Positions 31,624 through 59,607 of a DNA stretch of 64,000 bases are shown here, piece after piece; within the stretch, counting starts at the first letter, position 1, and every line of letters starts with the position of its first letter. Both the position numbers and the translations under genes were made by a program. This DNA comes from an uncultured Nocardioides sp. (lineage in GTDB: Bacteria; Actinomycetota; Actinomycetes; Propionibacteriales; Nocardioidaceae): positions 25,068-89,067 of the forward strand of contig NZ_CANLDB010000007.1 in the NCBI RefSeq assembly GCF_947489365.1, in the 5' to 3' direction. The notes under the pieces were generated by a model that was given only the letters and a program-made list of their open reading frames with translations, was not told the origin of the DNA and ran no database searches.

Positions 31624-33342
31624 ATGCCTGACCTCCGGTACAAGCCCGAGCCCGCGAAGCACACCGAGATCCCGCGCCCCAAGCGCGCCGAGGGTCAGTG
31701 GGCGCTCGGGTACACCGAGCCGCTGAACAAGAACGAGCAGTCCAAGAAGGACGACGACCCGCTGAACGTGCGGGACCGCATCCTCCACATCTACTCGAAG
31801 CGCGGCTTCGACTCGATCGACCCGGCCGACCTCCGCGGCCGCTTCCGCTGGATGGGGCTCTACACCCAGCGCAAGCCCGGCATCGACGGCGGCAAGACCG
31901 CCGTCCTCGAGGAGGAGGAGCTGGACGACCGCTACTTCATGCTGCGGGTCCGCTCCGACGGGCAGCTGCTCACGCCGGCCGCCGTCCGGGCCCTGGGCAC
32001 CATCGGCGTCGACTTCGCGCGCGACACCGCGGACGTCACCGACCGCGAGAACATCCAGTACCACTGGATCCGCATCGAGGACGTCCCCGAGATCTGGAAC
32101 CGCCTCGACGAGGCGGGCCTGTCCAGCCTCGAGGCCTGCGGTGACTCGCCGCGTCCCTTCCTGGGCTCGCCCGTCGCCGGGGTCGCGGCCGACGAGATCA
32201 TCGACGGCACCTCCGCGCTCGACGAGATCCGCGCCCGTTTCATCGGCGACCCGGCGTTCTCGAACTTCCCGCGGAAGTTCAAGACCGCGCTGACCGGCCA
32301 CCCGAGCCACGACGTCTCCCCCGAGACCAACGACGTGGCCTTCGTCGGCACCGTCCACCCCGAGCACGGCCCCGGCTTCGACGTCTGGGTCGGCGGCGGT
32401 CTGTCGACGAACCCCAAGCTCGCCGTGCCGCTCGGCGTCTGGATCCCGACCGACGAGGTCGCCGACGTGTGGGCCGGCGTCGCGGGCATCTTCCGCGACT
32501 ACGGCTACCGCCGCCTGCGCTCCAAGGCCCGCCTGAAGTTCCTCGTCGCCGACTGGGGCGGGGAGAAGTTCCGCGAGGTCCTCGAGAAGGAGTACCTCGG
32601 CCGCGAGCTCGTCTCCTGCCCCTCGCCGCCCTCGCCGGGCACCGTGCGCGACCACATCGGCGTCCACGACCAGAAGGACGGCCTCAAGTACGTCGGCCTC
32701 GCCCCGACCGCCGGCCGGGTCTCGGGCACGCTGCTGGCCGGCCTCGCCGACCTCATGGAGAAGCACGGTGTCGCCGGGGCGCGCCTGACGCCGTACCAGA
32801 AGATCGTGCTGATCGGTGTCCCGCCTGCCGCGGTCGACGCGCTGCTGGACGACCTCGACGAGCTCGGCCTGACCGCCCGGCCCTCGCAGTGGCGACGCAG
32901 CACGATGGCCTGCACGGGCATCGAGTTCTGCAAGCTCGCGATCGTCGACACCAAGGACCGCGCCCGCGACCTGGTCGCCGAGCTCGAGCGTCGCTTCCCC
33001 GACCTCGACACCCCGATCACCGTCAACGTCAACGGCTGCCCCAACGCCTGCGCCCGCACCCAGGTCGCGGACATCGGCCTCAAGGGCCAGCTCGTCACGG
33101 TGGACGGCGAACAGGTCGAGGGCTTCCAGGTCCACCTCGGCGGCGCCGCCGGCCTCGACGCGGTCTTCGGGCGCAAGCTCCGGGCCCACAAGGTCACCAG
33201 CGCCGGGCTGGACGACTACATCACCGCCGTCGTGAGCAGCTACCTCGCCGACCGGGCCGACGGCGGCGAGTCCTTCGCCGCCTGGGTCGCCCGGGCCGAC
33301 GAGGAATTGCTGCGGGGTGACAAGACGCTGGAGAACGCATGA
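31624..33342 (+). CDS. sirA: Ferredoxin-dependent sulfite (nitrite/sulfite family) reductase
   Basis: RFRWMGLYTQ, FMLRVRSDGQ, TDRENIQYHW, ACGDSPR, PRKFKTA, MACTGIEFCK, NGCPNAC siroheme/4Fe-4S ligands. cysH and the chelatase downstream favour sulfite as substrate. Confidence 0.92.
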   Translation: MPDLRYKPEPAKHTEIPRPKRAEGQWALGYTEPLNKNEQSKKDDDPLNVRDRILHIYSKRGFDSIDPADLRGRFRWMGLYTQRKPGIDGGKTAVLEEEELDDRYFMLRVRSDGQLLTPAAVRALGTIGVDFARDTADVTDRENIQYHWIRIEDVPEIWNRLDEAGLSSLEACGDSPRPFLGSPVAGVAADEIIDGTSALDEIRARFIGDPAFSNFPRKFKTALTGHPSHDVSPETNDVAFVGTVHPEHGPGFDVWVGGGLSTNPKLAVPLGVWIPTDEVADVWAGVAGIFRDYGYRRLRSKARLKFLVADWGGEKFREVLEKEYLGRELVSCPSPPSPGTVRDHIGVHDQKDGLKYVGLAPTAGRVSGTLLAGLADLMEKHGVAGARLTPYQKIVLIGVPPAAVDALLDDLDELGLTARPSQWRRSTMACTGIEFCKLAIVDTKDRARDLVAELERRFPDLDTPITVNVNGCPNACARTQVADIGLKGQLVTVDGEQVEGFQVHLGGAAGLDAVFGRKLRAHKVTSAGLDDYITAVVSSYLADRADGGESFAAWVARADEELLRGDKTLENA

Positions 33343-33500
33343 GCTCCTCGCGTGCGGCCTCGCCGTTCCACTGCCCGTACTGCGCCGAGACGGACCTCTG
33401 GCCACGTGAGGAGACCGGCGGCTGGGAGTGCCGGGCCTGCCTGCGGGCCTTCGCGGTGACCTTCCTCGGCCAGATCACCCCGTCCGGCGGTGCGCGATGA
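33339..33500 (+). CDS. 53-aa four-Cys zinc-ribbon-like protein (CPYC...CRAC)
   Basis: MSSSRAASPFHCPYCAETDLWPREETGGWECRACLRAFAVTFLGQITPSGGAR. ATGA overlaps at both ends; absent from the ORF track. Confidence 0.85.
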   Translation: MSSSRAASPFHCPYCAETDLWPREETGGWECRACLRAFAVTFLGQITPSGGAR

Positions 33501-34243
33501 CCACGGCCACCACCCAGGCCGCCCGGGACTTCAAGGGCACCCACACCGAGGGCCGCAGCTCCGAGGAGCTGCGCGAGCTGGTCAGTCACATGGGCGCCGA
33601 GCTCGAGCTCGCCCCCGCGGAACAGATCATCGAGTGGGCCGTCGCCACCTTCGGGGCGCGCTTCTGCGTCACCGCCTCGATGGCGGACGGCGTGCTGTCC
33701 CACGTCGCCTCCCGCGTCGCCCCCGGGGTCGACGTCGTCTTCCTCGACACCGGCTACCACTTCGTCGAGACCATCGGCACCCGCGACGCGGTGGCCGCGA
33801 CGCTGCCCGTCAACGTCATCAGCGCCACGCCCGAGCTGACCGTGGCCGAGCAGGACGAGAAGTACGGCAAGGACCTGTTCCGCCGCGACCCCGACGCCTG
33901 CTGCGCCATGCGCAAGGTCGCGCCGCTGAGCCGGATGCTGTCCGGGTACGACGCCTGGGCCACCGGCATGCGCCGTGCCGAGACCCGCAACCGGGTCGTC
34001 GCCCCCGTCATCGGCTGGGACGCCCGCAAGCAGAAGGTCAAGGTCTCCCCCCTCGCCCGCTGGTCCGACGAGGACGTGGACCGGTACGTCGCCGAGAACA
34101 ACGTGCTGGTGAACCCGCTGGTGCACGACGGCTTCCCGTCGATCGGCTGCGAGCCCTGCACCCGCCGCGTCGCCCCGGGCGAGGACGCCCGCAGCGGCCG
34201 CTGGGCCGGCACCTCGAAGACCGAGTGCGGCATCCACCTCTGA
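33497..34243 (+). CDS. cysH: (Phospho)adenylyl-sulfate reductase
   Basis: FLDTGYHF.ET, DACCAMRKV, PLARWS, GFPSIGCEPCT, SGRWAGTSKTECGIHL. The CC/CxxC motifs indicate the 4Fe-4S APS-reductase type. Confidence 0.95.
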   Translation: MTTATTQAARDFKGTHTEGRSSEELRELVSHMGAELELAPAEQIIEWAVATFGARFCVTASMADGVLSHVASRVAPGVDVVFLDTGYHFVETIGTRDAVAATLPVNVISATPELTVAEQDEKYGKDLFRRDPDACCAMRKVAPLSRMLSGYDAWATGMRRAETRNRVVAPVIGWDARKQKVKVSPLARWSDEDVDRYVAENNVLVNPLVHDGFPSIGCEPCTRRVAPGEDARSGRWAGTSKTECGIHL

Positions 34244-34305
34244 GCTGGCCCGACTCGACCCACCCATCCCACCCGGCACCCGCCACCGCCCGACAGGAGA
34301 CCGCG

Positions 34306-35049
34306 ATGACAGCTCCCGCGCTCGTCGCCCTCGCCCACGGCAGCGACGACCCCCGCTCGCGGAGGTCCGTCGCGGACCTCGTCGCCGAGGTCCGGCGCTC
34401 CCGCCCCGACCTCCGCGTCGAGTCCGCCGCGCTGGAGCACGGCGGCCCGACGCTGCTCGAGGTCGTCGCCCGCCTCGCGGCCGACGGGGTCGAGGAGGCG
34501 GTCGTCGTGCCGCTGCTGCTCACCGAGCCGCACCTGTGCGGTGCCGACGTCGACGCCGCGATCGCCGTCGCCGCCGTCCGGCACCCCGGCGTCCGGCTGC
34601 GCGCCTCGGCGGTGCTGGGCCTCGAGCCGGCGTTCCTCGAGGTCCTCGACGTGCGGCTGCGCGACAGCCTCGCCGCCGCCCGGGTCTGCGAGCTCGACGC
34701 GCTCGTGCTCGCCGCGTCGGGCACCAGCGACCACCTGACCAACGCGGCCGTCGCCCGCCTGGCGCGGCTGTGGGGCACCCACCACAAGCTGCCTGTCACC
34801 GCGGCGTACGCCGCCTCCGCCCCGCCGGCGACCGGCGAGGCCGTCCGGGCGTTCCGCGGGGAGGGACGACGCCACATCGCCGTCGGATCGCTGTTCCTGA
34901 CCCCGGGCTTCCTGCACGACCGGGCCTCCGAGCTCGCCCTCGAGGCCGGCGCCGTCGCCGTCTCGGCCCCGCTCGGCGCGCACCCCGAGGTCGCCCGCGT
35001 CGTCCTCGCCCGGTACGCCGTCGGCGCGGTGGAGCTCGTCCCCGTCTAG
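34306..35049 (+). CDS. sirB: Sirohydrochlorin chelatase (CbiX/SirB family)
   Basis: VALAHGSDDPRS, VVVPLLL, duplicated CbiX-like halves, PLGAHPEVA. Confidence 0.85.
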   Translation: MTAPALVALAHGSDDPRSRRSVADLVAEVRRSRPDLRVESAALEHGGPTLLEVVARLAADGVEEAVVVPLLLTEPHLCGADVDAAIAVAAVRHPGVRLRASAVLGLEPAFLEVLDVRLRDSLAAARVCELDALVLAASGTSDHLTNAAVARLARLWGTHHKLPVTAAYAASAPPATGEAVRAFRGEGRRHIAVGSLFLTPGFLHDRASELALEAGAVAVSAPLGAHPEVARVVLARYAVGAVELVPV

Positions 35050-35113: not shown

Positions 35114-35494
35114 TCAGCGGACGAGGATCTCCAGGAGCCGCTCCAGGCACGCCTGCGGGTCGTCGGCGACGCCGCCGTGGACGGGCCCCGGCCGCAGGAC
35201 GGTGCTGCGCGGCGCCTTGAGGTAGCCGAACCGGCTGCTGCGGGTGCCGCGGGCGGGCTCTCCCCCGGTCCCCGGGTCGCCCGCGCAGACCGCGTCGACG
35301 AACCGCAGCGCGGTCTCGACGTCCACGGGGTCCACGGAGGGGTCCAGGGCCCGGAGACGGTCGGCGTCGACGTGCCAGGCCGCGGCGAGCAGGTCGGCGT
35401 CCTGGCTGTGGAGCACCACGCCGACGTTCAGGAACTCCTCACGGTGCGCGCGGGGCACGCAGCGCAGGACGACGTACTCGTACGCCGCGCTCAC
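35114..35494 (-). CDS. DUF3037-domain protein
   Basis: YEYVVLRCVPRAHREEFLNVGVVL...RFGYLKAPRSTVLRPGPVHGG. GTG 35494 overlaps the kinase stop. Confidence 0.85.
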   Translation of the reverse strand: MSAAYEYVVLRCVPRAHREEFLNVGVVLHSQDADLLAAAWHVDADRLRALDPSVDPVDVETALRFVDAVCAGDPGTGGEPARGTRSSRFGYLKAPRSTVLRPGPVHGGVADDPQACLERLLEILVR

Positions 35495-36270
35495 GCCTCG
35501 CCCCCGGGGAGCCACTGGCGGGTGCCGAGGCGCGCGGTGAGGAACGCGACGTACGCCGCCCGCAGCGCCGCCGGGTCCTCGGCGCCGGGCACCGGGTCGA
35601 GCCAGGCGTCGGGCACGCGGGCGAGGACGCCCTCCAGGCGCTCCGTGGTCAGCAACGAACCGAGCTCCTCGTCGAGCTCGCGGGCGCGCCCGGCGTGGGT
35701 GGTGAGCAGGTGGTCGCTCGCGTCCCAGCGCTGGGCCGCGAAGCGGGCGGGGTCGCCGACGCCGCCGGGCCAGGAGTGGTGGAAGTACAACGCCGCGCCG
35801 TGGTCGATCACCCACAGGCGCCGGTGCCACCACAGCAGGTTCGGGTTGCGCCAGCTGCGGTCGACGTTGGCGCACAGCGCGTCGAGCCACAGCACGCGGG
35901 CGGCGACGTCGGGCTCGGCGGCCGCCTGGCCGTCGTACCCGAAGGCGCCGGGGAGGAAGTCCACGCCCAGGTTGAGCCCGACGCTGGCGCGCAGCAGGTC
36001 CTGGACCTCCTCGTCGGCCTCGTACCGGGTCAGCGCCTTGGTGAGGTCGACCGTGACCTGCCGCGGGGTGGCCAGGCCGATGGCCTCGGCGATGCCGGCC
36101 ACCACCACCTCGGCCACGAGGACCCGCGGGCCCTGGCCGGCGCCGCGGTACTTCACGACGTAGGTGCCGAGGTCGTCGGCCTCCATCAGGCCCGGCAGCG
36201 ACCCGCCCTCCCGGAGCGGGGCGACGTACCGGGTCGCGGAGACGGCGGCGAGCGCCCCCTCCCCGGTCAC
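35491..36270 (-). CDS. HipA-like (HipA_2) kinase
   Basis: RYVAPLREGGSLPGLMEADD..YVVKYRGAGQG; catalytic NVDRSWRNPNL and IDHG motifs. Confidence 0.85.
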   Translation of the reverse strand: MTGEGALAAVSATRYVAPLREGGSLPGLMEADDLGTYVVKYRGAGQGPRVLVAEVVVAGIAEAIGLATPRQVTVDLTKALTRYEADEEVQDLLRASVGLNLGVDFLPGAFGYDGQAAAEPDVAARVLWLDALCANVDRSWRNPNLLWWHRRLWVIDHGAALYFHHSWPGGVGDPARFAAQRWDASDHLLTTHAGRARELDEELGSLLTTERLEGVLARVPDAWLDPVPGAEDPAALRAAYVAFLTARLGTRQWLPGGEA

Positions 36271-37106
36271 GAGATCGGGTCCTGCTCGAGCAGCCGGCGC
36301 CGCTCACCCTCGACGTCGACCTGTGCGGGCGGCCAGACGGGCGCCATCTCCGCGAGGGTGTCGCGCAGCAGGTGGGCCACGGCCAGGTTGCGGTACCACT
36401 TGCGGTCGGCCGGGACGACGAACCACGGGGCGACCTCGGTGCTGGTGCGCTCCAGCGCGGTCTCGTAGGCCGCCACGTAGTCGGACCACCGGGCCCGGTC
36501 GTCGATGTCGGAGGTGGCGAGCTTCCACTGCTTCGTGGGGTCGTCCATCCGGGACAGCAGGCGCTCCTTCTGCTCCTCGGGCGAGATCAGGAGCAGGCAC
36601 TTCACGACCCGGGTCCCCGACTCCACCACCTCGGCCTCGAAGTCGTTGATCGCGCCGTAGCGGCGCTCGATCTCGGTGTCGTCGGCGAGCGAGCGGACCT
36701 TGGCGGCCAGGACGTCCTCGTAGTGGGAGCGGTCGAACACCCCGACCTGACCGGCGGCCGGCAGCGCCCGGCGGATGCGCCAGAGGAAGTCGTGGGCGAG
36801 CTCCTCGTCGGTCGGGGCGCCGAAGCCGGTGATCCGCAGGCCCTGCGGGTCGACGAGCCCGGCCACGTGACGGACGGTGCCGCCCTTGCCGGCGGTGTCC
36901 ATGCCCTGCAGCACGAGCAGCACGCTGCGCGTCGAGCCGGTCACCCGCTCCGCGAACAGCCGCTCCTGCAGGTCGCCGAGGTCCGGCGCCAGCGCGGCCA
37001 GGGCCTCGCGCCCGGCCGCCTTGTCCCCCTCGAACCCGGGCGTGGCCCGGGTGTCGTACGAGGACAGGTCGACGGCGCCGGGCGGGAGGCGGAGCAGCTC
37101 GAGCAT
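36267..37106 (-). CDS. ppk2: Polyphosphate kinase 2 family protein
   Basis: Walker A LQGMDTAGKGG, HDFLWR, VFDRSHYEDV, ERLLSRMDDPTKQWK, PWFVVPADRKWYRN. Start ATG 37106 follows TAGGGT-N7. Confidence 0.93.
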   Translation of the reverse strand: MLELLRLPPGAVDLSSYDTRATPGFEGDKAAGREALAALAPDLGDLQERLFAERVTGSTRSVLLVLQGMDTAGKGGTVRHVAGLVDPQGLRITGFGAPTDEELAHDFLWRIRRALPAAGQVGVFDRSHYEDVLAAKVRSLADDTEIERRYGAINDFEAEVVESGTRVVKCLLLISPEEQKERLLSRMDDPTKQWKLATSDIDDRARWSDYVAAYETALERTSTEVAPWFVVPADRKWYRNLAVAHLLRDTLAEMAPVWPPAQVDVEGERRRLLEQDPIS

Positions 37107-38800: not shown

Positions 38801-38867
38801 CGGCCGGGACACCGTCCCGGCGCTGTGGAGAACTCGACCCGTCGTCCGCCTGTGGACACCACAGTAA

Positions 38868-38881
38868 CGAACAGATGTTCG
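38868..38881. promoter_or_regulatory. LexA (SOS) box of recA
   Basis: CGAAC-AGAT-GTTCG, the actinobacterial consensus, next to a minus-strand -10 TACTGT at 38861-38866. Confidence 0.9.
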
Positions 38882-38895
38882 ACGCGGCAGGAGCG

Positions 38896-39378
38896 CTACG
38901 GCGTGTCGGGGCGTGTCTGGTCGCGCCGGTCGGCAGGCGCCTCGTCCAGCGGGGCGCTGAGGTCCTCCGGGCGCGAGCGGCGACGCGCCGAGCGCACCAG
39001 CGCCCCCGCGAGGACCAGCCCCAGGACGACGCCGACCAGCACCAGGTAGCCGGTCGTGTAGTCCCGGTCCAGCAGCGTCGGGTTGTCGGGCAGCGCACCG
39101 AACCGGCCGAGGAACGGCACGGCCAGCACGGTGACCGTGGCCAGGACGACGAAGGCCACCCCGGCCGGCGCTCGCCACGACGCCGGCAGCAGCCGGCCCA
39201 GCAGCGCGAGGACGAGCAGGGCCAGCGGCGCCAGGAGCAGGTCGTGCACCAGCGCTCCCCCGACCAGCCACACCAGGGCGGACGGCAGGTCGTCGAGACG
39301 GTCGTGGACCAGCAGGAAGCCGCCGTACGCCGCGACGGCGGTGCCGACGACGGCCAGGACGAGACGCCCGGCGCTCAC
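38896..39378 (-). CDS. Small 4-TM membrane protein
   Basis: Hydrophobic helices with LVHDLLLAP and [14 protein letters not shown]-coupled to the oxidoreductase; it is the 3' part of track ORF 38896..40467. Confidence 0.8.
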
Positions 39379-40544
39379 AGCGTCTCCAACCGGGTGACCC
39401 ACTTGGTCTGAAGGACGCCGGGCCGGTTCGGGGCGATGATCCGGCAGGGGTAGCCGTGGTCCGGCGACAGCGTCTCCCCGTTGACCTCGAGGGCGAGCAG
39501 CGTGAGGGGGTCGTCGGCGAAGTTCGCAGGCAGCCGCGACGTCGAGAACGCGCCCCGCGTCTGCAGGGAGTAGACGCCGACGTCGGCGCCGCTGGTGCCG
39601 ACCAGCGCCATGACGTCGCTCATGCGGGGTCCGGTCCAGGTGGCCGAGGCGCTCCACCCCTCGACGCAGGCGATCGGCAGCTCGACCGTCTGCTGCGGCA
39701 GCGCGCGCAGGTCGTCGAGCGTGAGACGCCGTCCGGAGTCGCCCCGGAGCACGGTGAGCCGCCAGGACGACCCGGTGGCCTCCTCGCTCACGCCCGCCGC
39801 GACGGCGGTGCGGTTGATCGGCAGGCCCTGCGGCCCGTCGCCGGTGCGGACCCCGAGCACGGAGACCTTCCGCAGCAGCGGGACGGTGGCGCCGGCGGTG
39901 GCCACGACGGCGACGGTCGCGGCGAGCCAGGTGCTGCGCAGCAGGCCGCGTCGGCTCATCACGCCGTCCCGCGAGTGCTCCACGTCGTACGGCGGCGGGT
40001 GGTCGGGGTCGTCCTCCTCGACGTCGCGGGCGTACGCGCCGCGGATGGCCGGCAGCTTGAGCGCGACGTGGACGACGATCGCGCCGATCGCCAGCCACGC
40101 CACGGCGTAGTGGGTGGGCCGGAAGGAGAACTCCCACGGGTACCACTGGGTGGAGTTCATCAGCCCGGTGACGAGCTGGAAGACGCCGGAGGCGACGAGC
40201 ACCAGCGTCGCGAGCCGCTCGAGCCCGTGGACGACGGCCGCCCGCGGCGGCCACGCGACGACCCGCCCGAACAGGCGCGGGTAGACGGTCCACAGCTTGA
40301 CGAGCAGCAGCGGGATCGCGGCGGTGCCGGTGATGACGTGCAGCCCCTGCGTCACGCGGTAGCCCCAGGCCGGCCGCGTGGGGAAGGCCACCAGCGGGTC
40401 CGGCACCTGGGCCCAGTGGCTGACCAGGCCCGTCAGGAAGCAGATCCCGAAGGTGATGCCGAGCCACGTGCCGACGCGCGCGGCGACGGCCGGGCTGTGC
40501 AACCGGGAGGTGAAGTCCGTCTGCGAGGGCGTGCGGACGGCCAC
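39375..40544 (-). CDS. Cytochrome-b-like TM domain fused to a sulfite-oxidase/MsrP-family molybdopterin domain
   Basis: Four TM His (LVSHW, GLHV, PTHY, VVHV); internal SRRGLL; Mo-ligand PIACVEGWS; [22 protein letters not shown]. Confidence 0.85.
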
Positions 40545-40555
40545 GGGCGCTGTCC

Positions 40556-41236
40556 TCAGCTCGACGAGACGAGCACGGTGAACCACCGGTCGCCGTGCTG
40601 GTGGAACTCCTGGACGGACAGGCCCACCTCGGCGGCCACCTCGTCGACGGCGTCCGTGCCGACGACGGACCAGCGGAACGGACGGCTGCGCAGGCCGCCG
40701 GACTCCAGGCAGGCCCACATGGTCACGAAGCCCGCACCGGGCGGGGAGAGCTCGACGACGACCCGACCCCCGGGGTCGAGCAGCTCCTTGATCCGTCCGA
40801 GGAGCGCGATGGGGTCCCCGCCGATGCCGATGTTGCCGTCGGCGAGCAGCGCGGTCTGCCAGCGGCCCTCGCCGGGCAGGGTGTCGAAGACGTTGCGGAC
40901 GATCGCGGACACGCCGCGGTCCCGGGTCTGCAGGACCGCCTCGTGGACGACGTCGATGCCCAGCACGGTGTGGCCGACCTCGGAGAGGTGCTCGGCCATC
41001 CGGCCGGGGCCGCAACCGATGTCGAGGGTCGGGCCCTCGCACAGCGCGAGCAGCGCGCGGTCGGCCTCGTCGGCCTCGCGCTTCCACTCGGAGACCGGCA
41101 GGTGCTCGGGGGCGTCGCCGATGCCGACGACGGTGCAGGCCTCACCGCGCAGGGCGGCGGCGAAGACGTTGGTGAAGGAGGCGTCGGAGGTGACGCCGGC
41201 GTCGGCCAGGACGTCGTCCGCGGGCTCGAGGCTCAT
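40556..41236 (-). CDS. Class I SAM-dependent methyltransferase
   Basis: TLDIGCGPGR motif I, VLGID, LLADGNIGIGGD. ATGA-coupled to the DUF2064 gene. Confidence 0.88.
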   Translation of the reverse strand: MSLEPADDVLADAGVTSDASFTNVFAAALRGEACTVVGIGDAPEHLPVSEWKREADEADRALLALCEGPTLDIGCGPGRMAEHLSEVGHTVLGIDVVHEAVLQTRDRGVSAIVRNVFDTLPGEGRWQTALLADGNIGIGGDPIALLGRIKELLDPGGRVVVELSPPGAGFVTMWACLESGGLRSRPFRWSVVGTDAVDEVAAEVGLSVQEFHQHGDRWFTVLVSSS

Positions 41237-41949
41237 CGGGTGGCACCCACGTCCGTCGAGCCGACCCGGGCGGCGAGGCCGGCCCAGGCCCGGGCGAACT
41301 CCCCGTCGGGGGCGAGGCCGACGACGGCCTCGGCGTCGGCGACGGTGTCGACGTCGCGCAGGACCGGCAGGTCGGCCACCTCGACGCCCGCGGCGACGAG
41401 CGCCGCACGCGTGTCGGCGTACGTCGTGGGTGTCGACATCGGCACCGGCGCCAGGCTGGCGGCCCGGGCGGGGTCGCGCAGCGCGAGCACCCACCAGCCG
41501 CCGTCCTCGGCGGGCCCGAGGGCTGCCTCCGCGGTGTCGAGGGTCGCGGCGGCGGCGCGCAGCGCGGCCCCCGTGACCTGGGGCGTGTCCATCCCGATCT
41601 GCACCGTCGTCCCTCCCGCGCCCGACGCGTCGATCGCGTGGGCGGTGTCCTCGTGGGCGGCGGCGATCCGCTCACCCAGCTGCTCGCCGCGCTGCGGCAC
41701 CACGTGCCAGCCAGCGACGGCGGCGGTCAGCTCCTCACCGCGCACCGCCGCGGCCAGGTCCCCCTCGAGCGCGAGGTGGCAGTGCTCGGCGCCGAACGCG
41801 TCGGTCGCGGCGCGCAGGGTGTCCAGCAGCGAGGCGGCGGCCACCTCGGCGGCCTCCTCGAGGCCGATGTCGGCCCCCAGGCGCGTCTTCACGGCACCGG
41901 CCACCGGCGCCTTCGCCAGGACCAGGGCGTGGGCCTGCCACGTCGTCAT
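41233..41949 (-). CDS. DUF2064/TIGR04282-family GT-A fold protein (nucleotidyltransferase-like, Rv0540-like)
   Basis: LVLAKAPVAGAVKTRL, PQRG..LGERI..A, QIGMDTPQ, LGPAEDGGWW, LRDVDTVADA. Confidence 0.88.
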   Translation of the reverse strand: MTTWQAHALVLAKAPVAGAVKTRLGADIGLEEAAEVAAASLLDTLRAATDAFGAEHCHLALEGDLAAAVRGEELTAAVAGWHVVPQRGEQLGERIAAAHEDTAHAIDASGAGGTTVQIGMDTPQVTGAALRAAAATLDTAEAALGPAEDGGWWVLALRDPARAASLAPVPMSTPTTYADTRAALVAAGVEVADLPVLRDVDTVADAEAVVGLAPDGEFARAWAGLAARVGSTDVGATR

Positions 41950-42635
41950 GAGAGCACCTTCCAGAAATCCCGAGCCGTCCGCACCGTTCCGGTGACCGAC
42001 CCGGAGACCTTGGAGCGGGTGCCCTCGGCGCGGGGGTGGTAGCCGACGTCGTGCTCGCTCACCCGCCAACCGTGCAGGGTCACCTTCTGCAACAGCTCGA
42101 CAGGATAACCGAAGCGCCTGTCCTTCACGTCAAGGTCGAGCAACTCCTGCCGCCGGCACACCCGCATGGGGGCGATGTCGTGGGCGTCCATGCGGATGCG
42201 GCGGCGCAGCCAGGCGACGATCAGCTGGTTGCCGGCACGCGCGTGCCAGGGCCACACGCCCCGTCGTACGGGGCGGCGTCGGCCGACGGACATGTCCGCC
42301 CGGCCGGCGCGCACGTCGTCCAGCAGGACCAGCAGCTCGTCGGGGTCGAAGGACCCGTCGCCGTCCATGACGGCGAGGAACTCGCGGGTCGCCGCCTCGA
42401 CGCCGGCGTGGACGGCGGCGCCGTACCCGGGCACGGTCTCGCGGACGACGAGGGCGCCGTGCTCGGCGGCCACCGCCGCGGTGTCGTCGGTGGAGTTGTT
42501 GTCGACGACGATGACGGAGAAGGCGCCCGGGATCCGGGGCAGGAGACCGCGCAGCGCCGGGCCCTCGTCCTTGCAGGGCAGGACGAGATCGCAGCAGGGC
42601 TGCTCGCCCGACGACTGCTTCTCGGTCGACGACAT
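41946..42635 (-). CDS. GT2 polyprenyl-phosphate glycosyltransferase (Rv0539-like)
   Basis: LVLPCKDEG, VVDNNSTDDT, GYGAAVHAG, MDGDGS, YHPRAEGTRSKVSG. Start ATG 42635 follows TAGGTT-N7. Confidence 0.9.
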   Translation of the reverse strand: MSSTEKQSSGEQPCCDLVLPCKDEGPALRGLLPRIPGAFSVIVVDNNSTDDTAAVAAEHGALVVRETVPGYGAAVHAGVEAATREFLAVMDGDGSFDPDELLVLLDDVRAGRADMSVGRRRPVRRGVWPWHARAGNQLIVAWLRRRIRMDAHDIAPMRVCRRQELLDLDVKDRRFGYPVELLQKVTLHGWRVSEHDVGYHPRAEGTRSKVSGSVTGTVRTARDFWKVLS

Positions 42636-42686
42636 GAGGGACAACCTATGTCGGACGCGGTTGGAGCATCTCCTAGGCTCCCCGGC

Positions 42687-44096
42687 ATGTCGACCACCCG
42701 GCGAGCCGACGAGACCTCGACCACGCCGGAGGCGGCCTCCGCCCGGGGCGCCGCCCTCGGTCTCGGTGTGACCCTGGTCATCATGGCAGCCTCCACCGCC
42801 GTCCCGCTGCTGACGGGGTGGCAGGTGTGGACGCACTCGACGATCGAGGGTCGCGAGTTCCCGCCGCTGCACTCCCGCTGGTCGCCCAACGTCGGCCCGG
42901 GGACCATCCCCGCCGTCGTCATTGCCCTGGCCGCCCTCGTCGGCGCGCGACGGGTCGCGGAGCGGTTGTCGTGGCGTCCGCTGCTGGCCGTCGCGTTCGT
43001 CGTCGGGCTGGCCTGGATGCTGTCCCTGGCGTACGTCGACGGCTCGTCCGGGATCTCGCGGGTGCTCGGCAACCCGTACGAGTACCTCATCACCGCCCGG
43101 GAGATCGACGACATCCCGGCGATGATCGACGGGTTCACCGAGCGGATCCCGTACGCCCACCCGCAGAACTGGGTGGTCCACATCGCCGGCCACCCGCCGG
43201 GGATGTTCCTGTACTTCGTGTGGCTCGACCGCCTCGGGCTGGGTGACGACTGGACGGCCGGGATCATCGTGACCGTCGCCGCCGCCACCACTCCCCTGGC
43301 CCTGATGGTGGCGATGAGGGCGCTCGGCGCCGAGGCGATGGTGCGCCGCGCCCTGCCCTTCCTCGTGCTCGGGCCGGCCGCCCTGTTCGCCGCGGTCTCC
43401 GCCGACGCGCTCATCGCGGTCACCGCCTCCTGGGGCCTGGCCCTGATGGCGATCGCGGGCACGCGCGCCTCCCGCGGCGCGATGGCCGCCTGGGCCGTCG
43501 CGGCGGGGCTGACGCTCGGCTGGACCGTGATGACGTCCTGGGGCATCGGCCTGATCGGCATCCTCGCGCTGACGATCCTGTGGCTGACCCGGTCGTGGTG
43601 GCTGTTCCCCGTGATCGCCGCCAGCGCGCTGGTCGTGGTCCTCGTCTTCTCGTTCTACGGCTTCCACTGGTGGGAGGCCTTCCCCGTCCTGCAGGAGCGC
43701 TACTGGGACGGTCTCGCCGCCGACCGCCCCGCGGCGTACTGGATGTGGGGCAACCTCGGCGCCCTCGCGTACGCCGCCGGACCCGCCGTCGGCGCCGGCC
43801 TCGGCCGGCTCGCCACGATGCGGCCCTCGCGGTTCGACGAGGTGGCCGCCGACACGGGCACGGACCGCCGCGCGGTCGCGGTGACCGTGGCCCTGTCGCT
43901 GGCGATGACCGCCGTCGTCCTCGCCGCCGACCTGTCACGCATGAGCAAGGCCGAGGTCGAGCGGATCTGGCTGCCGTTCGTGCCGTGGCTCCTGCTCGCC
44001 ACCGCCCTGCTCCCCGCCCGCTGGCGCACGCCCCTGCTCGGGCTCGGCATGGTCGTGGCGCTCGTCGTCCAGCACCTCTTCTACACGTCCTGGTAG
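42687..44096 (+). CDS. Polytopic GT-C-type membrane glycosyltransferase (Rv0541c/MtxT-like)
   Basis: About 11-12 TM segments; EYL, HIAGHPPG, SADA, DLSRMSKAEVERIWLPF loop motifs. Start ATG 42687 follows TAGGCT-N7. Confidence 0.75.
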   Translation: MSTTRRADETSTTPEAASARGAALGLGVTLVIMAASTAVPLLTGWQVWTHSTIEGREFPPLHSRWSPNVGPGTIPAVVIALAALVGARRVAERLSWRPLLAVAFVVGLAWMLSLAYVDGSSGISRVLGNPYEYLITAREIDDIPAMIDGFTERIPYAHPQNWVVHIAGHPPGMFLYFVWLDRLGLGDDWTAGIIVTVAAATTPLALMVAMRALGAEAMVRRALPFLVLGPAALFAAVSADALIAVTASWGLALMAIAGTRASRGAMAAWAVAAGLTLGWTVMTSWGIGLIGILALTILWLTRSWWLFPVIAASALVVVLVFSFYGFHWWEAFPVLQERYWDGLAADRPAAYWMWGNLGALAYAAGPAVGAGLGRLATMRPSRFDEVAADTGTDRRAVAVTVALSLAMTAVVLAADLSRMSKAEVERIWLPFVPWLLLATALLPARWRTPLLGLGMVVALVVQHLFYTSW

Positions 44097-44261: not shown

Positions 44262-45305
44262 TCAGCTGCGCAGCGGCGCCGTGGCGAAGGCGGCGAGGCC
44301 CTCGGTGGGGCCGACCTGGGCGGTGAAGCCGAGGTCGGCGGCAGCGCGGGCCGGGGAGGCGACGATGTGGCGGACGTCGCCGAGGCGGTACTGGCCGGTG
44401 ACGACCGGCTCGATCCCGCTGCCGGTGCCGGCGGCGACGCGGCGGGCGACGTCGAGGATCGCCACGGGCTCCCCCGAGCACACGTTGTACGCCGCGTGGG
44501 ACTGCGTCGGCGCCTCCCGCACGGCGTCGATCGACAGCACGTTCATGCGCGCCACGTCGTCGACGTGGACGAAGTCGCGCATCTGCCCACCGTCCTCGTA
44601 GACCGTGGGGGCCTCGCCGCGCTCCAGGGCGGACCGGAACATCGCCGCCACCCCCGAGTACGGCGTGTCGCGGGGCATGCCGGGGCCGTAGACGTTGTGG
44701 TAGCGCAGCGAGACCGCCGCGGCGCCCGCCTGCCGCACCCACGCGACCGCGTAGTGCTCCTGGGCGACCTTGGACGCGGCGTAGCTGCTGCGGGGGTCGA
44801 GGCGGGCGTCCTCGTCGACGGGCTCCCACCCGAGCGGCTCGCCGCAGACGGGACAGGGGTTCTCGAAGGCCCCGCCGTCGAGGGCGTCGGTGGTGCGGGT
44901 GCCGGGCAGCTGGTGGCCGTGCGTGGCGCAGGCGTAGCGCCCCTCGCCGTACACGACCATCGAGGACGCCTGCACGAGCCGGTCGACGCCGTGCTCGGTC
45001 ATCGCCGCCATGAGGACGGCGGTGCCGAGGTCGTTGTGGCCGGCGTACTCGGGCATGTCCGCGACGGTGACCCCGGCGCCGACCATGGCCGCCTGGTGGC
45101 ACACGACGTCGATGCCGTCGAGCAGCTCGCCCCAGGCGCCGGCGTCGCGGACGTCGAGCTGGTGGACGCCCTCGGGCGCGGTGGCCGAGCCGTGGGCCGC
45201 GGGCAGCATGAGGTCCACGCCGACGACCTCGTCGCCGCGGGCGGTCAGCTGGTCGGTGATCCTCGCGCCGATGAAACCGGCGGCGCCGGTGAGCAGGACG
45301 CGCAT
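44262..45305 (-). CDS. NAD-dependent epimerase/dehydratase (extended SDR, Rv0536-like)
   Basis: VLLTGAAGFIG, CHQAAMVG, ASSMVVYGEG, YAASK, LRYHNVYGP, RDFVHV. TGATG-coupled to the phosphorylase. Confidence 0.92.
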   Translation of the reverse strand: MRVLLTGAAGFIGARITDQLTARGDEVVGVDLMLPAAHGSATAPEGVHQLDVRDAGAWGELLDGIDVVCHQAAMVGAGVTVADMPEYAGHNDLGTAVLMAAMTEHGVDRLVQASSMVVYGEGRYACATHGHQLPGTRTTDALDGGAFENPCPVCGEPLGWEPVDEDARLDPRSSYAASKVAQEHYAVAWVRQAGAAAVSLRYHNVYGPGMPRDTPYSGVAAMFRSALERGEAPTVYEDGGQMRDFVHVDDVARMNVLSIDAVREAPTQSHAAYNVCSGEPVAILDVARRVAAGTGSGIEPVVTGQYRLGDVRHIVASPARAAADLGFTAQVGPTEGLAAFATAPLRS

Positions 45306-46123
45306 CAGCGGCCCGGGATCTCGTAGGTGACGTCGACGCCGTCGGTCCAAGCGGCGCACGAGCAGCCGTCCGGGTCGGGCAGGTCGCCGATGGTGGCGCC
45401 CAGCAGCTCCTTGAGCCGCTCGATGCGCGAGGCGAAGAGCGCGAACACCTCGTCCTGGGAGACGCCCGAGCCCTCCTCGACGCCGGCGTCCATGTCGGTG
45501 ACCAGCGCGACCGCGGAGTAGCACATGGTCATCTCGCGGGCGAGGACCGCCTCGGGGTGGCCGGTCATGTTGACCAGCGTCCAGCCCTGCGCGGCGTAGT
45601 GCTGCGACTCGGCGCGGGTGGAGAAGCGGGGGCCCTCGATGACGACCATCGTGCCGCCGTGGGCGACGTCGTCGCCCTGCACGGCGGCGGAGAGCCGCGC
45701 GCAGTACGGGTCTGCGAAGGGCAGGTGCACCGCGCCGGTCTCGACGTACGACTGGGTGCGGGTGAAGGTGCGGTCGACGAGCTGGTCGGGGACGACGATG
45801 TCGCCCGGTGCCACCTCGGTGCGCAGACCGCCGACGGCGCAGGGCGCCAGCACCTGGCGGACGCCGAGGGAGCGCAGCGCCCAGAGGTTCGCGCGGTAGT
45901 TGATCGCGTGGGGCGGGTAGGCGTGGTGCTGCCCGTGGCGCGGGAGGAAGGCCGCCGACCGCCCGTTGACGGTGCCGATCGCGATCGACGACGACGGGTC
46001 GCCGTACGGCGTGGAGACGGTGTGCTCGACGGGGTCGTCCAGGAAGGAGTAGAAGCCGGTCCCGCCGATGACGGCGACGTCGGCGGTGGGCTGCACGCTG
46101 GGCTCGACGGAAGGGGTGCTCAC
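45305..46123 (-). CDS. mtnP: S-methyl-5'-thioadenosine phosphorylase
   Basis: VIGGTGFY, TPYGDPS, FLPRHG.HH.YPPH.INYRANLWAL, IEGPRFSTRAES, NMTGHPEA.LARE, LVTDMD. Start re-assigned to GTG 46123. Confidence 0.93.
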   Translation of the reverse strand: MSTPSVEPSVQPTADVAVIGGTGFYSFLDDPVEHTVSTPYGDPSSSIAIGTVNGRSAAFLPRHGQHHAYPPHAINYRANLWALRSLGVRQVLAPCAVGGLRTEVAPGDIVVPDQLVDRTFTRTQSYVETGAVHLPFADPYCARLSAAVQGDDVAHGGTMVVIEGPRFSTRAESQHYAAQGWTLVNMTGHPEAVLAREMTMCYSAVALVTDMDAGVEEGSGVSQDEVFALFASRIERLKELLGATIGDLPDPDGCSCAAWTDGVDVTYEIPGR

Positions 46124-46916: not shown

Positions 46917-46994
46917 CCTGCGTCGACCGGAGCCGGACCGGCACGACGGGCCGGCCTGGGTACCCCCTCGGGTGCGCGGACGTCCCGGCGCGGC

Positions 46995-47016
46995 TGTCGG
47001 TGGTGTCGGAGAGGAT
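46995..47016 (+). promoter_or_regulatory. PafBC-type (RecA-NDp) promoter of lhr
   Basis: TGTCGGTG-GTGTCGGA-GAGGAT, then 6 nt to the GTG start. The -10 has one mismatch to TAnnnT. Confidence 0.7.
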
Positions 47017-47022
47017 GGTCGG

Positions 47023-57405: not shown

Positions 57406-58026
57406 CTACTGCACGCGCTTCGAGCTGGTGCGCGCGGTGTCCTGACGGGCCCGCCAGACGTCGCGGAAGAACTCGTAGCCGGACCAGAGCGTCATCACCA
57501 CGGCGGCGGCCAGGACGGCCTGGGTGACGTAGAAGAGGATCTCGCCGGGCAGGTCGAGCGACCCGTCGACCTGGCGCAGCGGCAGGCTCAGGCCGCCGAG
57601 CGCCAGGGCCTGCAGGGTGGTCTTCACCTTGCCGCTCTGCGCGGCCGGCAGCACGACCCGGCGCAGCAGGGACAGGCGCAGCAGGGTCACCGACCACTCG
57701 CGCAGCAGCACGAGGATCGTCACGGCCCACCAGACGTCCCCGACGATGCTGAGGCCGATGAAGGCCATCCCGGTCAGCGCCTTGTCGGCGATCGGGTCGG
57801 CGATCTTGCCGAAGTCGGTGACCTGGCCGCGGGCGCGTGCCAGGTCGCCGTCGATCTTGTCGGTGATCATCGCGGCGGCGAAGAGCACGAAGGCCACGGT
57901 GCGCCAGGTCACGGACTCGCCGCCGTCGACGAGCAGGGCGGCGCCGAAGAACGGCACCATCGCGATCCGCAGCGCCGTCAGGGCGTTGGGGAGGTTGAAG
58001 TTGCTGACCTTCGCCTGTTGGGTCAC
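57406..58026 (-). CDS. pgsA: CDP-diacylglycerol--glycerol-3-phosphate 3-phosphatidyltransferase
   Basis: [37 protein letters not shown]. Confidence 0.95.
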
Positions 58027-59522: not shown

Positions 59523-59607
59523 GGCGATCACCCAGTATGACGGCCGGGCCGGGTCCGCCCCAATGCGCGGCCCGGCCGTCTGCTCGGGCCCCGGTCCTCC
59601 GCGGGGC

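Follow-up and report, generated by a model that had tools for sequence, protein, structure and literature searches.

A haem-molybdenum membrane oxidoreductase linked to methylthio-sugar genes in Nocardioides and other Actinobacteria, and its possible role in sulfoxide reduction

The methylthio sugar MTX of M. tuberculosis reportedly depends on five genes, described by Angala et al. in 2017: Rv0535 (MTAP), Rv0536 (epimerase), Rv0539 (MtxS), Rv0540 and Rv0541c (MtxT). To our knowledge, MTX/MSX chemistry is established in M. tuberculosis only. The sugar is made from 5'-methylthioadenosine (MTA) via a decaprenyl-phosphate donor and a GT-C enzyme acting outside the cell (PMC11127046), and its sulfoxide form, MSX, is present on lipoarabinomannan (LAM) (PMC8531672). 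Oxaziridine probes specific for thioethers have also been published (PMC12088412).

Two systems are of particular relevance for comparison with the locus described here. The first is MsrPQ (YedYZ), the methionine sulfoxide reductase system of the E. coli periplasm, in which a membrane haem-b protein passes electrons to a SUOX-fold Mo enzyme that Tat has exported from the cytoplasm; the two are separate polypeptides. The second is Sco3746 of S. coelicolor, a polytopic haem-MoCo protein whose membrane insertion takes both Sec and Tat (Tooke et al., eLife 2017; PMC5449189). Five TMDs were found by Cys labelling, reporters fused after TMD5 were exported in an RR/Tat-dependent manner, and the twin-arginine was required for Tat export (PMC5449189). 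The published work on Sco3746 concerns biogenesis only, and the analogy of this type of protein to MsrPQ was already drawn there (PMC5449189); the fused haem-Mo architecture is thus previously described, in 2017, and we claim no novelty for it. The literature that we searched contained no paper tying the Sco3746 family to MTX and none proposing a sulfoxide cycle. A related interest comes from Rv0218 of M. tuberculosis, which, unlike the protein studied here, lies outside the MTX cluster. It is reported to be required for growth in the mouse spleen and to be linked to TB meningitis (PMC5800017), and its annotation reads possible sulfite oxidase (PMC2936551).

The window analysed is a stretch of 64,000 nucleotides from an uncultured Nocardioides sp. 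It carries on the minus strand, at 39375..40544, a whole gene for a 389-aa haem-b/Moco membrane oxidoreductase, which we refer to as MoOx and assign to the Sco3746 family on the basis of sequence, alignment and model. Its start codon is the GTG at 40544, immediately preceded by GAGGAC, and the TGA of the upstream gene is 11 nt away. In the AF2 model (pLDDT 90.4, pTM 0.87) helices are found at residues of about 18-46, 61-92, 100-133, 141-171 and 198-224, in agreement with the hydropathy scan. Residues 1-171 (40032..40544, minus strand) make up a four-helix cytochrome-b-like domain with five histidines, H43, H69, H106, H145 and H159, as indicated by a weak PF01292 match, by His conservation and by the helices. 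H69, H145 and H159 do not vary among 26 diverse homologues, H43 is retained in at least 90% of them, and H106 is variable. A variable His at the position equivalent to H106 is the same pattern as described for the Sco3746 family (PMC5449189). The His-bearing N-terminal domain of four helices, proposed originally from the sequence, was thus borne out by model, hydropathy and conservation alike.

The same prediction had called this domain MsrQ-like and, taken as homology, that part failed. The hhalign comparison with E. coli MsrQ gave a probability of 0.1 and PF01794 was found in 0 of 26 family members, so that MsrQ homology was rejected. PF01292 matched 11 of the 26 weakly, at E<0.01, and reached 27.4 bits on MoOx itself, under the gathering threshold of 30.1. 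Foldseek returned a weak match to HyaC (4gd3_A, probability 0.66). The domain weakly resembles cytochrome b of the HyaC/FdnI type, with which it has in common four helices carrying His ligands. Compared with the four-His dihaem pattern of these proteins, however, the positions in MoOx correspond only partly. The His partner on the inner side is located on helix 3 and is variable.

Upstream of TMD5 there is an internal twin-arginine motif, SRRGLL (S197-L202; 39939..39956, minus strand), in which R198 and R199 are invariant in 26/26 homologues. TMD5 itself (39873..39938, minus strand) is rich in Ala, Thr and Gly and is followed by R225-K226, as for Tat-inserted TMDs, judged from hydropathy and the published criteria (PMC5449189). 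The rest of the protein, residues 225-389 (39378..39872, minus strand), is according to Pfam, Foldseek and hhalign a compact SUOX-fold Mo domain without the dimerisation domain, predicted to be extracytoplasmic. PF00174 covers residues 257-387 with an E value of 9e-25. Within it, ACVEGWS (39651..39671, minus strand) holds the invariant C293, the presumed Mo-ligand Cys, and aligns without gaps to CVEAWS of MsrP, while in HGYPCR (39441..39458, minus strand) H363, G364, P366 and R368 are invariant among the 26 aligned homologues. These motifs are conserved characters of the family and not products of chance. The twin-arginine motif before a hydrophobic helix, the Mo domain with its ACVEGWS and HGYPxR signatures, and the fusion of a haem-type membrane domain to a Mo domain in one protein were accordingly all present as first proposed.

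MoOx and the membrane part of Sco3746 (residues 1-272) share 39% identity (E 1e-36), and the Cys-labelled positions of Sco3746 fall in loops of MoOx when transferred by pairwise alignment. Both proteins have five TMDs with conserved His in the TMDs, a twin-arginine immediately before a weakly hydrophobic TMD5, positive charges thereafter and a C-terminal Mo domain. Sco3746 differs in its longer first outer loop and belongs to a separate subfamily, with no more than 36-43% identity to any of the 80 close relatives of MoOx, those from Streptomyces included. Because experiments gave the homologous Sco3746 five TMDs, the last of them handled by Tat, the Mo domain of MoOx should lie outside the membrane and its N-terminus would, by the same analogy, be cytoplasmic. 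The outward-facing Mo domain of the original prediction is in this way supported by homology together with the topology experiments on Sco3746 (PMC5449189).

Whether the Mo domain is closer to MsrP or to sulfite oxidases was considered from several sides. The description of it as MsrP-like held in part: MoOx has, like MsrP, the CVE[GA]WS Cys motif and no dimerisation domain (PF03404 had no match in Pfam), and hhalign against E. coli MsrP gave a probability of 97% at 28% identity with CVEGWS and CVEAWS aligned gaplessly. It did not hold as equivalog membership, as the NCBIfam model for MsrP, NF003767, scored 29.9 bits against a cutoff of 207 and covered only residues 343-386, and Foldseek showed no preference for YedY. 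Sulfite oxidases, SorA, SoxC, SorT and YedY matched about equally, YedY no better than the sulfite oxidases. The domain is also small, about 165 aa, compared with 334 aa for the full precursor of E. coli MsrP and roughly 290 aa for the mature enzyme. In addition, MsrPQ is divided over two polypeptides and MoOx is one, with a haem domain unrelated to MsrQ and with a thio-sugar pathway as its genomic partner.

The lack of preference for MsrP in sequence and fold searches counts against a sulfoxide reductase. In a different reading, MoOx would be a sulfite:menaquinone dehydrogenase detoxifying extracytoplasmic sulfite. In searches by sequence and by fold the top matches are sulfite oxidases and dehydrogenases, and the oxidation of sulfite to menaquinone is downhill. 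However, the post-Cys loop of sulfite oxidases with the sulfite-binding R190 is absent from MoOx in the alignment, and so is the dimerisation domain, which supplies R450, another sulfite-binding Arg. The NCBIfam scores are far under the respective cutoffs for SoxC (40.9/420), SorT (22.3/570) and SorA (17.3/600). The gapless CVE[GA]WS, the missing R190 loop and the missing dimerisation domain speak for a reductase over a sulfite oxidase. The annotation of Rv0218 as possible sulfite oxidase (PMC2936551) is in line with the sulfite reading, which we nevertheless regard as very improbable.

The genes around MoOx are those of an MTX-type cluster. Directly upstream, at 40556..41239 on the minus strand, is a class I SAM-dependent methyltransferase (MT) identified by Pfam, NCBIfam and PDB, the matches in PDB and NCBIfam being generic class I ones only. 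It is preceded by a DUF2064/TIGR04282 protein of Rv0540 type, a putative sugar nucleotidyltransferase (41233..41949, minus strand; Pfam, NCBIfam), whose gene has ATGA overlaps at both ends, and by a GT2 polyprenyl-phosphate sugar synthase-like protein of Rv0539/MtxS type (41946..42644, minus strand; Pfam, NCBIfam). At the MtxT position, on the plus strand at 42687..44096, there is a polytopic membrane protein of Rv0541c type, presumed to be a GT-C from its position and from synteny with M. goodii. It had no family match in Pfam or NCBIfam, a profile search against PDB sequences was likewise empty, and a single-sequence model reached a pLDDT of only 46; it shares 39% identity with its M. goodii counterpart in the Rv0541c position, and an LVDG motif in an early loop is invariant in the alignment. 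Further on follow an SDR sugar epimerase of Rv0536/GalE3 type with an uncertain exact start (44262..45350, minus strand; family match) and an S-methyl-5'-thioadenosine phosphorylase (MTAP) of Rv0535 type (45305..46123, minus strand; NCBIfam), the latter at equivalog level (NF005876, 399 bits against 306; TIGR01694, 276.6 against 274.85). On the other side of MoOx the gene memS (38896..39378, minus strand) encodes a 160-aa four-TM protein with a weak DUF2231 match, and its GTG start overlaps the TGA stop of MoOx (GTGA).

The cluster genes in the window are translationally coupled; RNA-seq evidence of co-transcription was sought, and the runs carrying the sequence were DNA or metagenome only. 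Within 6 kb the window has the complete set of five gene types from the M. tuberculosis pathway (MTAP, SDR epimerase, DUF2064, GT2 and the polytopic membrane protein), one gene per type, so that the placement of MoOx among MTX-like genes was confirmed. Compared with the M. tuberculosis pathway, the cluster is extended by MT, MoOx and memS, and in most relatives by an OmpR-type two-component system as well. At a distance of 5-8 kb from MoOx the window also contains sulfite reductase, cysH and cbiX.

Linkage was counted at 80 genome loci of close MoOx relatives and in a subset of 58 with full flanks. Among the 80, DUF2064 was found at 71, GT2 and memS at 69 each, MT at 66, the GT-C-like gene and the epimerase at 60 each and MTAP at 45. 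The corresponding figures for the 58 full-flank loci were 56 (DUF2064), 55 (GT2), 53 (MT), 52 (epimerase), 48 each (memS and the GT-C-like gene) and 38 (MTAP). The full-flank loci span at least six families: Nocardioidaceae, Dermatophilaceae, Mycobacteriaceae, Pseudonocardiaceae, Micromonosporaceae and, for the last, Streptomyces. The Sco3746 locus has matching neighbours, i.e., memS, MT, DUF2064, GT2, a two-component system and an epimerase, and M. goodii has the full cluster with MT-MoOx-memS included. Set against the M. tuberculosis gene order, the M. goodii cluster is syntenic with the Rv0539-Rv0545c region, and menE-like, DUF3349 and PHO4 genes come after it. The original prediction was to fall if homologues of MoOx were not linked to MTX-like genes; the linkage, present with DUF2064 at 56/58 loci, at the Sco3746 locus and in M. 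goodii, is real and deep. The sulfur-assimilation neighbours, which would suit a sulfite dehydrogenase, are in contrast confined to Nocardioides loci sharing recA synteny (8-13 loci), while the MTX genes are conserved everywhere. With the missing loop and dimerisation domain, the low scores and this Nocardioides-limited distribution, sulfite dehydrogenation was rejected as the leading model.

Since MoOx almost always adjoins genes for methylthio-sugar decoration, it may plausibly serve to re-reduce the oxidised sugar. The mechanism that fits best is a sulfoxide reductase that draws on menaquinol and has the methylsulfinyl sugar as its substrate; we hold it as a tentative model, possible but at somewhat under an even chance. 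Helices 1-4 would be inserted by Sec and should bind one or two haems b, the candidate ligand pairs being H69/H145 towards the outside and H106/H159 towards the inside. The Mo domain is presumably folded and loaded with Moco before it leaves the cytoplasm; SRRGLL and the weakly hydrophobic fifth helix would then hand it to Tat, so that it ends outside. The cluster, for its part, would convert 5'-methylthioadenosine to a polyprenyl-phosphate-linked 5-methylthio-pentose of MTX type and then place it on an envelope glycan. Electrons would pass from menaquinol over haem b to Mo, where oxygen would be stripped from extracellular CH3-S(O)-CH2- groups and the thioether restored. The enzyme would chiefly act on the sugar in its methylsulfinyl form, either on the glycan or on the lipid-linked donor, and exposed methionine sulfoxide, chemically the same group, may be a second substrate. 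The potential of the sulfoxide/thioether couple is about +160 mV and that of menaquinone about -74 mV; sulfoxide reduction driven by menaquinol is therefore downhill, and oxidation of a thioether to menaquinone uphill.

Another reading takes MoOx as a general reductase of protein methionine sulfoxide in the envelope, an actinobacterial counterpart of MsrPQ in one polypeptide. The thio-sugar genes would then adjoin only through a shared regulon for oxidative stress in the envelope, and the sugar would not be a substrate. The MsrP-type Cys motif and the absence of a dimerisation domain agree with this, as do the frequent presence of the OmpR-type two-component system in the cluster (hprRS adjoins msrPQ in E. 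coli) and two Williamsia loci with MoOx-memS but no MTX genes in the flanks available, an observation that also counts against the sugar as substrate. The analogy to MsrPQ drawn by Tooke et al. (PMC5449189) points in the same direction. We consider this reading unlikely, however, because the adjacency is tight and often translationally coupled across several families and both subfamilies, beyond what is usual for co-regulation, and MoOx scores below the MsrP equivalog level.

The sulfoxide reductase model leaves the conserved MT and memS without a part in the proposed cycle, which counts against it. The two genes travel with MoOx (among the 80 loci: MT 66, MoOx 80, memS 69), and the known MTA-based pathway does not account for MT, as the methyl group is present on MTA from the start. 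Alternatively, MT, MoOx and memS may form a biosynthetic tailoring module that acts on the sugar or its lipid carrier and gives a product unlike that of M. tuberculosis, with MoOx performing a required redox step, instead of repair, on the lipid-linked or glycan-bound sugar. The M. tuberculosis MTX cluster is not known to have these three genes between the Rv0540-type and Rv0541c-type genes, and in M. goodii the block is present at that place. Nevertheless, we give such a module little credence: there is no evident chemistry to couple a cytoplasmic SAM enzyme to an outward Mo centre, MoOx is retained without MT at several loci (Dermatophilaceae and others), and oxidation of a thioether to menaquinone is thermodynamically unfavourable.

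Reduction of the methylsulfinyl sugar, the mechanism we prefer, faces further difficulties from the mycobacteria. MTX/MSX chemistry is established in M. tuberculosis, yet its MTX cluster, also judged from the synteny with M. goodii, is not known to include MoOx, MT or memS. M. goodii, a close relative of M. smegmatis, has the full cluster. M. smegmatis, however, gave no thioether labelling (PMC12088412).

The conserved linkage brings together two puzzles, the role of the MTX cap and its sulfoxide on lipoarabinomannan and the function of haem-molybdenum proteins of the Sco3746/Rv0218 type. In a wider version of the model, Actinobacteria that decorate their envelope with methylthio-pentose would possess a Mo reductase devoted to this sugar, facing outward and fed by menaquinol, which would turn the oxidised methylsulfinyl form back into the thioether, and the glycan coat would be a rechargeable oxidant sink; memS, MT and the two-component system would act as a support and control module, and Rv0218 would be the unlinked counterpart in M. 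tuberculosis. We put this forward as a doubtful proposition, more apt to fail than to hold. If it is true, sulfoxide repair would for the first time be known for a carbohydrate, extending from proteins to glycans, and there would be a reason why making a thioether sugar pays. If it is false, the linkage still narrows the search for the function of the Sco3746 family to the thio-sugar pathway. As to Rv0218 as an orthologue of MoOx, a search with a mycobacterial MoOx homologue gave at least 120 matches; those listed were all from fast-growing or environmental mycobacteria, and M. tuberculosis was not among the matches listed. The adjacency to recA/recX was rejected as meaningful, being confined to loci of Nocardioides type (17-18/80). 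The four-TM protein memS has two conserved motifs, W..G...HD..AP and N..LLDR.Y..G.

The MoOx gene (39375-40544, minus strand) encodes a protein of 389 aa, whose closest named relative, from Nocardioides, was 88% identical. The upstream gene stops 11 nt before its GTG start, which is preceded by a Shine-Dalgarno-like GAGGAC; the G+C content of the window is about 74%. In Pfam searches residues 257-387 matched PF00174, the molybdopterin-binding oxidoreductase domain (E 9e-25), and the N-terminal half matched two families, both below threshold, prokaryotic cytochrome b561/Ni_hydr_CYTB (27.4 vs 30.1 bits) and DUF4405. A confident AlphaFold2 model based on 26 homologues (pLDDT 90.4, pTM 0.87) comprised five long helices (18-46, 61-92, 100-133, 141-171 and 198-217) and, after them, a domain of mixed alpha/beta type, and five helices were also obtained by a hydropathy scan. 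All motifs listed in the original prediction were present, which confirms that observation, SRRGLL, ACVEGWS and HGYPCR mapping to the expected nucleotide coordinates. Since H69, H145, H159, R198, R199, C293, H363, G364, P366 and R368 were invariant across the 26-sequence alignment, these motifs were regarded as family characters and not as chance occurrences; H43 was nearly invariant and H106 variable. TMD5 is rich in Ala, Thr and Gly and is followed by R225-K226.

The fusion of a membrane haem domain with a Mo domain is not new, having been described before. The MoOx-type family came to light when membrane proteins were screened for an internal Tat motif, with Sco3746 from S. coelicolor as the example and with E. 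coli MsrP/MsrQ remarked on as a split version of the same arrangement (Tooke et al., eLife 2017, PMC5449189). Sco3746 was predicted to contain five TMDs, with a twin-Arg motif immediately preceding TMD5, and a MoCo domain at the C-terminus; conserved His in TMD2-4 of the family were predicted to serve two haems b, except that the His opening TMD3 is not conserved. Experimentally, export of reporters fused after TMD5 needed both an intact RR motif and functional Tat machinery, insertion of the first helices did not need Tat, and cysteine labelling was consistent with five TMDs and a cytoplasmic N-terminus; TMD5 is weakly hydrophobic with positive charges after it (PMC5449189). Aligned with residues 1-272 of Sco3746, taken from the supplement of that paper, MoOx showed 39% identity (E 1e-36), and the labelled cytoplasmic and external positions fell in the expected MoOx loops. 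Because of this homology to an experimentally mapped protein, the Mo domain is predicted with good support to face outward, as had been proposed, and the five-TMD topology and Sec/Tat assembly route, shown in the homologue only, would apply to MoOx by analogy. MoOx is a Sco3746-type haem-MoCo protein with a gene neighbourhood also like that of the founding member, although Sco3746 itself falls into another subfamily and shares 36-43% identity with each of the 80 MoOx relatives analysed, the Streptomyces ones included.

As statements of homology, the labels "MsrQ-like" and "MsrP-like" had to be abandoned. The MoOx-family profile matched E. coli MsrQ with a probability of 0.1 and PF01794 (ferric-reductase family) was matched by none of the 26 family members, which rules out the haem domain as an MsrQ homologue. 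PF01292 was weakly matched by 11 of the 26, and the sole Foldseek match of this domain was hydrogenase-1 cytochrome b (4gd3_A), at low confidence (probability 0.66). Against the NCBIfam equivalogs MoOx fell far under every cutoff examined, namely MsrP (29.9 vs 207 bits), SoxC (40.9 vs 420), SorT (22.3 vs 570) and SorA (17.3 vs 600). Its Mo domain has the fold of sulfite oxidase (SUOX); chicken and plant sulfite oxidase, SorA, SoxC, SorT, YedY/MsrP and nitrate reductase were retrieved with similar Foldseek E-values (1e-8 to 1e-6), with PruR, a group of small pterin-binding proteins, ranking next, and a profile search of PDB sequences placed sulfite oxidases on top (63 bits) and YedY below (43 bits). 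MoOx is a member of neither MsrP nor MsrQ. A sulfite:menaquinone dehydrogenase would fit this raw similarity ranking best, but it agrees with neither the active-site layout nor the conserved context, and we consider it very improbable. CVEGWS of MoOx aligned with CVEAWS of MsrP without gaps (hhalign probability 97%). Sulfite oxidase differs in an extra loop after the Cys, which contains the sulfite-binding R190, and in a dimerisation domain, which contributes another sulfite-binding Arg, R450; MoOx has neither. In these three local features, the Cys motif, the missing loop and the missing dimerisation domain, the Mo domain resembles MsrP more than the sulfite enzymes, and it is reasonable to suppose, by analogy, that MoOx works like MsrPQ.

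The gene lies in a minus-strand cluster beginning at about 46.1 kb with an S-methyl-5'-thioadenosine phosphorylase (MTAP) assigned at equivalog level (399 vs 306 bits). Toward 38.9 kb follow an SDR sugar epimerase, a polytopic membrane protein of about 470 aa on the opposite strand with no family match, a GT2 polyprenyl-phosphate sugar synthase-like protein, a DUF2064/TIGR04282 protein, a class I SAM methyltransferase (MT; 40556-41239), MoOx and finally memS (38896-39378), a four-TM protein of 160 aa with a weak DUF2231 match and the conserved motifs W..G...HD..AP and N..LLDR.Y..G, which could be a partner subunit of MoOx. ATGA overlaps join GT2 to DUF2064 and DUF2064 to MT, and a GTGA overlap joins MoOx to memS, so that the overlapping genes fit a single translationally coupled transcript. 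These gene types are those of the 5-methylthio-xylofuranose (MTX) pathway of M. tuberculosis, the full five-gene list of which was reportedly given by Angala et al. in 2017. The pathway starts from 5'-methylthioadenosine (MTA) and has an extracytoplasmic GT-C as its last step (PMC11127046); MtxS (Rv0539) produces the polyprenyl-P-MTX donor, transfer is by MtxT (Rv0541c) (PMC12088412), and the sulfoxide form of MTX (MSX) has been documented on LAM (PMC8531672).

A scan of one genome per species yielded at least 595 MoOx relatives; the best 80 (50-64% identity) were taken with 10-kb flanks, complete in 58 loci, and neighbours were counted by tblastn with the window's cluster proteins. The linkage to MTX-type genes, on which the original prediction depended, clearly held in these homologues: DUF2064 was found in 71 of the 80 loci (56 of the 58 with full flanks), GT2 in 69 (55), memS in 69 (48), MT in 66 (53), the MtxT-like membrane protein in 60 (48), the epimerase in 60 (52) and MTAP in 45 (38). 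The loci came from Nocardioidaceae, Dermatophilaceae/Intrasporangiaceae, Mycobacteriaceae, Gordonia, Pseudonocardiaceae, Micromonosporaceae and Streptomyces. The Sco3746 locus in S. lividans comprised a membrane protein, MoOx, a 161-aa protein, MT, DUF2064, GT2, a response regulator with kinase, and the epimerase. The exceptions comprised three contigs that were truncated and two loci from Williamsia, where MoOx-memS was free of MTX-type genes over 10 kb on the upstream side and 4-5 kb on the downstream side; Rv0218-Rv0219 of M. tuberculosis presumably shows a similar unlinked arrangement. Such a conserved place in MTX-type clusters is apparently undescribed in the literature searched. MoOx itself is ordinary; its importance lies in this linkage, through which the roles of MTX/MSX and of Rv0218-type proteins, both long unknown, become directly testable by experiment.

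With family membership, motifs, conserved neighbourhood and the adjoining MTA-based thio-sugar pathway observed for the protein itself, MoOx may be a menaquinol-driven reductase of the cluster's methylsulfinyl sugar, a reading we favour over its rivals and hold as possible while stopping short of calling it probable. Haem(s) b would be reduced by menaquinol, electrons would pass from haem to Mo outside the membrane, and the Mo centre would take the oxygen off a methyl sulfoxide, presumably the methylsulfinyl form of the cluster's own sugar, since this is the sole sulfoxide that the cluster predicts. Sulfoxide/thioether couples lie at about +160 mV and menaquinone at about -74 mV, so sulfoxide reduction would be favourable and thioether oxidation via a quinone-linked b-haem would not. 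Methylsulfinyl sugar and methionine sulfoxide present the identical CH3-S(O)-CH2- group; that MoOx is a general envelope Met-SO reductase, merely co-regulated with the thio-sugar genes, seems unlikely to us. Two-component genes were cluster members in most relatives, an OmpR-type response regulator occurring in 50 and a histidine kinase in 39 of 83 loci, at positions differing between families (for example 13888-15845 in L081, 6251-7953 in the M. goodii contig L084, about 11800-13440 in L003); at E<1e-5 the window held no homologue of this pair. A two-component system, hprRS, likewise adjoins msrPQ in E. coli.

Several observations weaken the sugar-sulfoxide reading, itself apparently undescribed in the literature searched. 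The cycle gives no role to MT or memS; MT gave only generic database matches, an MTA-derived sugar has its methyl group already, and the M. tuberculosis cluster presumably has no MT. A biosynthetic tailoring module, in which MoOx acts with the still unexplained methyltransferase and memS, is unlikely in our judgement. MTX/MSX chemistry is known to be proven in M. tuberculosis only, and the cluster there appears to lack MoOx. In M. goodii the order was RR/HK, GT2, DUF2064, a 209-aa protein, MoOx, a 161-aa protein and an opposite-strand 451-aa membrane protein, then a menE-like gene, DUF3349 and PHO4; we take this to be syntenic with H37Rv Rv0539-Rv0545c, so that M. tuberculosis would have an equivalent cluster from which the MT-MoOx-memS block is missing. 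M. goodii is a close relative of M. smegmatis. A probe study found no thioether labelling in M. smegmatis (PMC12088412), and the full cluster in M. goodii sits poorly with this; the explanation would be either a difference between the two species or a cluster product that is not an exposed thioether. M. tuberculosis does encode Rv0218, which might be an orthologue of MoOx; it is described as spanning the membrane several times and ending in a molybdopterin domain (PMC5800017), and is annotated as a possible sulfite oxidase (PMC2936551).

Between memS and recA, 14 nt past the memS stop, lies TCGAACATCTGTTCGT (about 38867-38882, minus strand), which fits the actinobacterial LexA/SOS box pattern TCGAAC-N4-GTTCG upstream of recA. 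As this box-like element follows memS, the layout suggests that the thio-sugar operon stops before recA, which would be under its own SOS-controlled promoter; only loci of Nocardioides type (17-18 of 80) shared the recA/recX adjacency of the window. At 5-8 kb from the MoOx gene the window encodes sulfite reductase, PAPS reductase (cysH) and CbiX, followed by a DUF3037/HipA-like kinase pair and PPK2 (31624-35049, plus; 35114-37100, minus); these neighbours were common to Nocardioides-type loci alone, the sulfur-assimilation genes to only 8-13 loci. The stretches 46972-51783 (plus), 52431-57284 (minus) and 57406-63968 (minus) are an ordinary housekeeping context, with a large Lhr-type helicase and a 1617-aa protein with lamin-tail and 5'-nucleotidase C-terminal domains, then a CDP-alcohol phosphatidyltransferase, a MiaB-like radical-SAM methylthiotransferase, an HTH_25 (RodZ-like) protein and FtsK.
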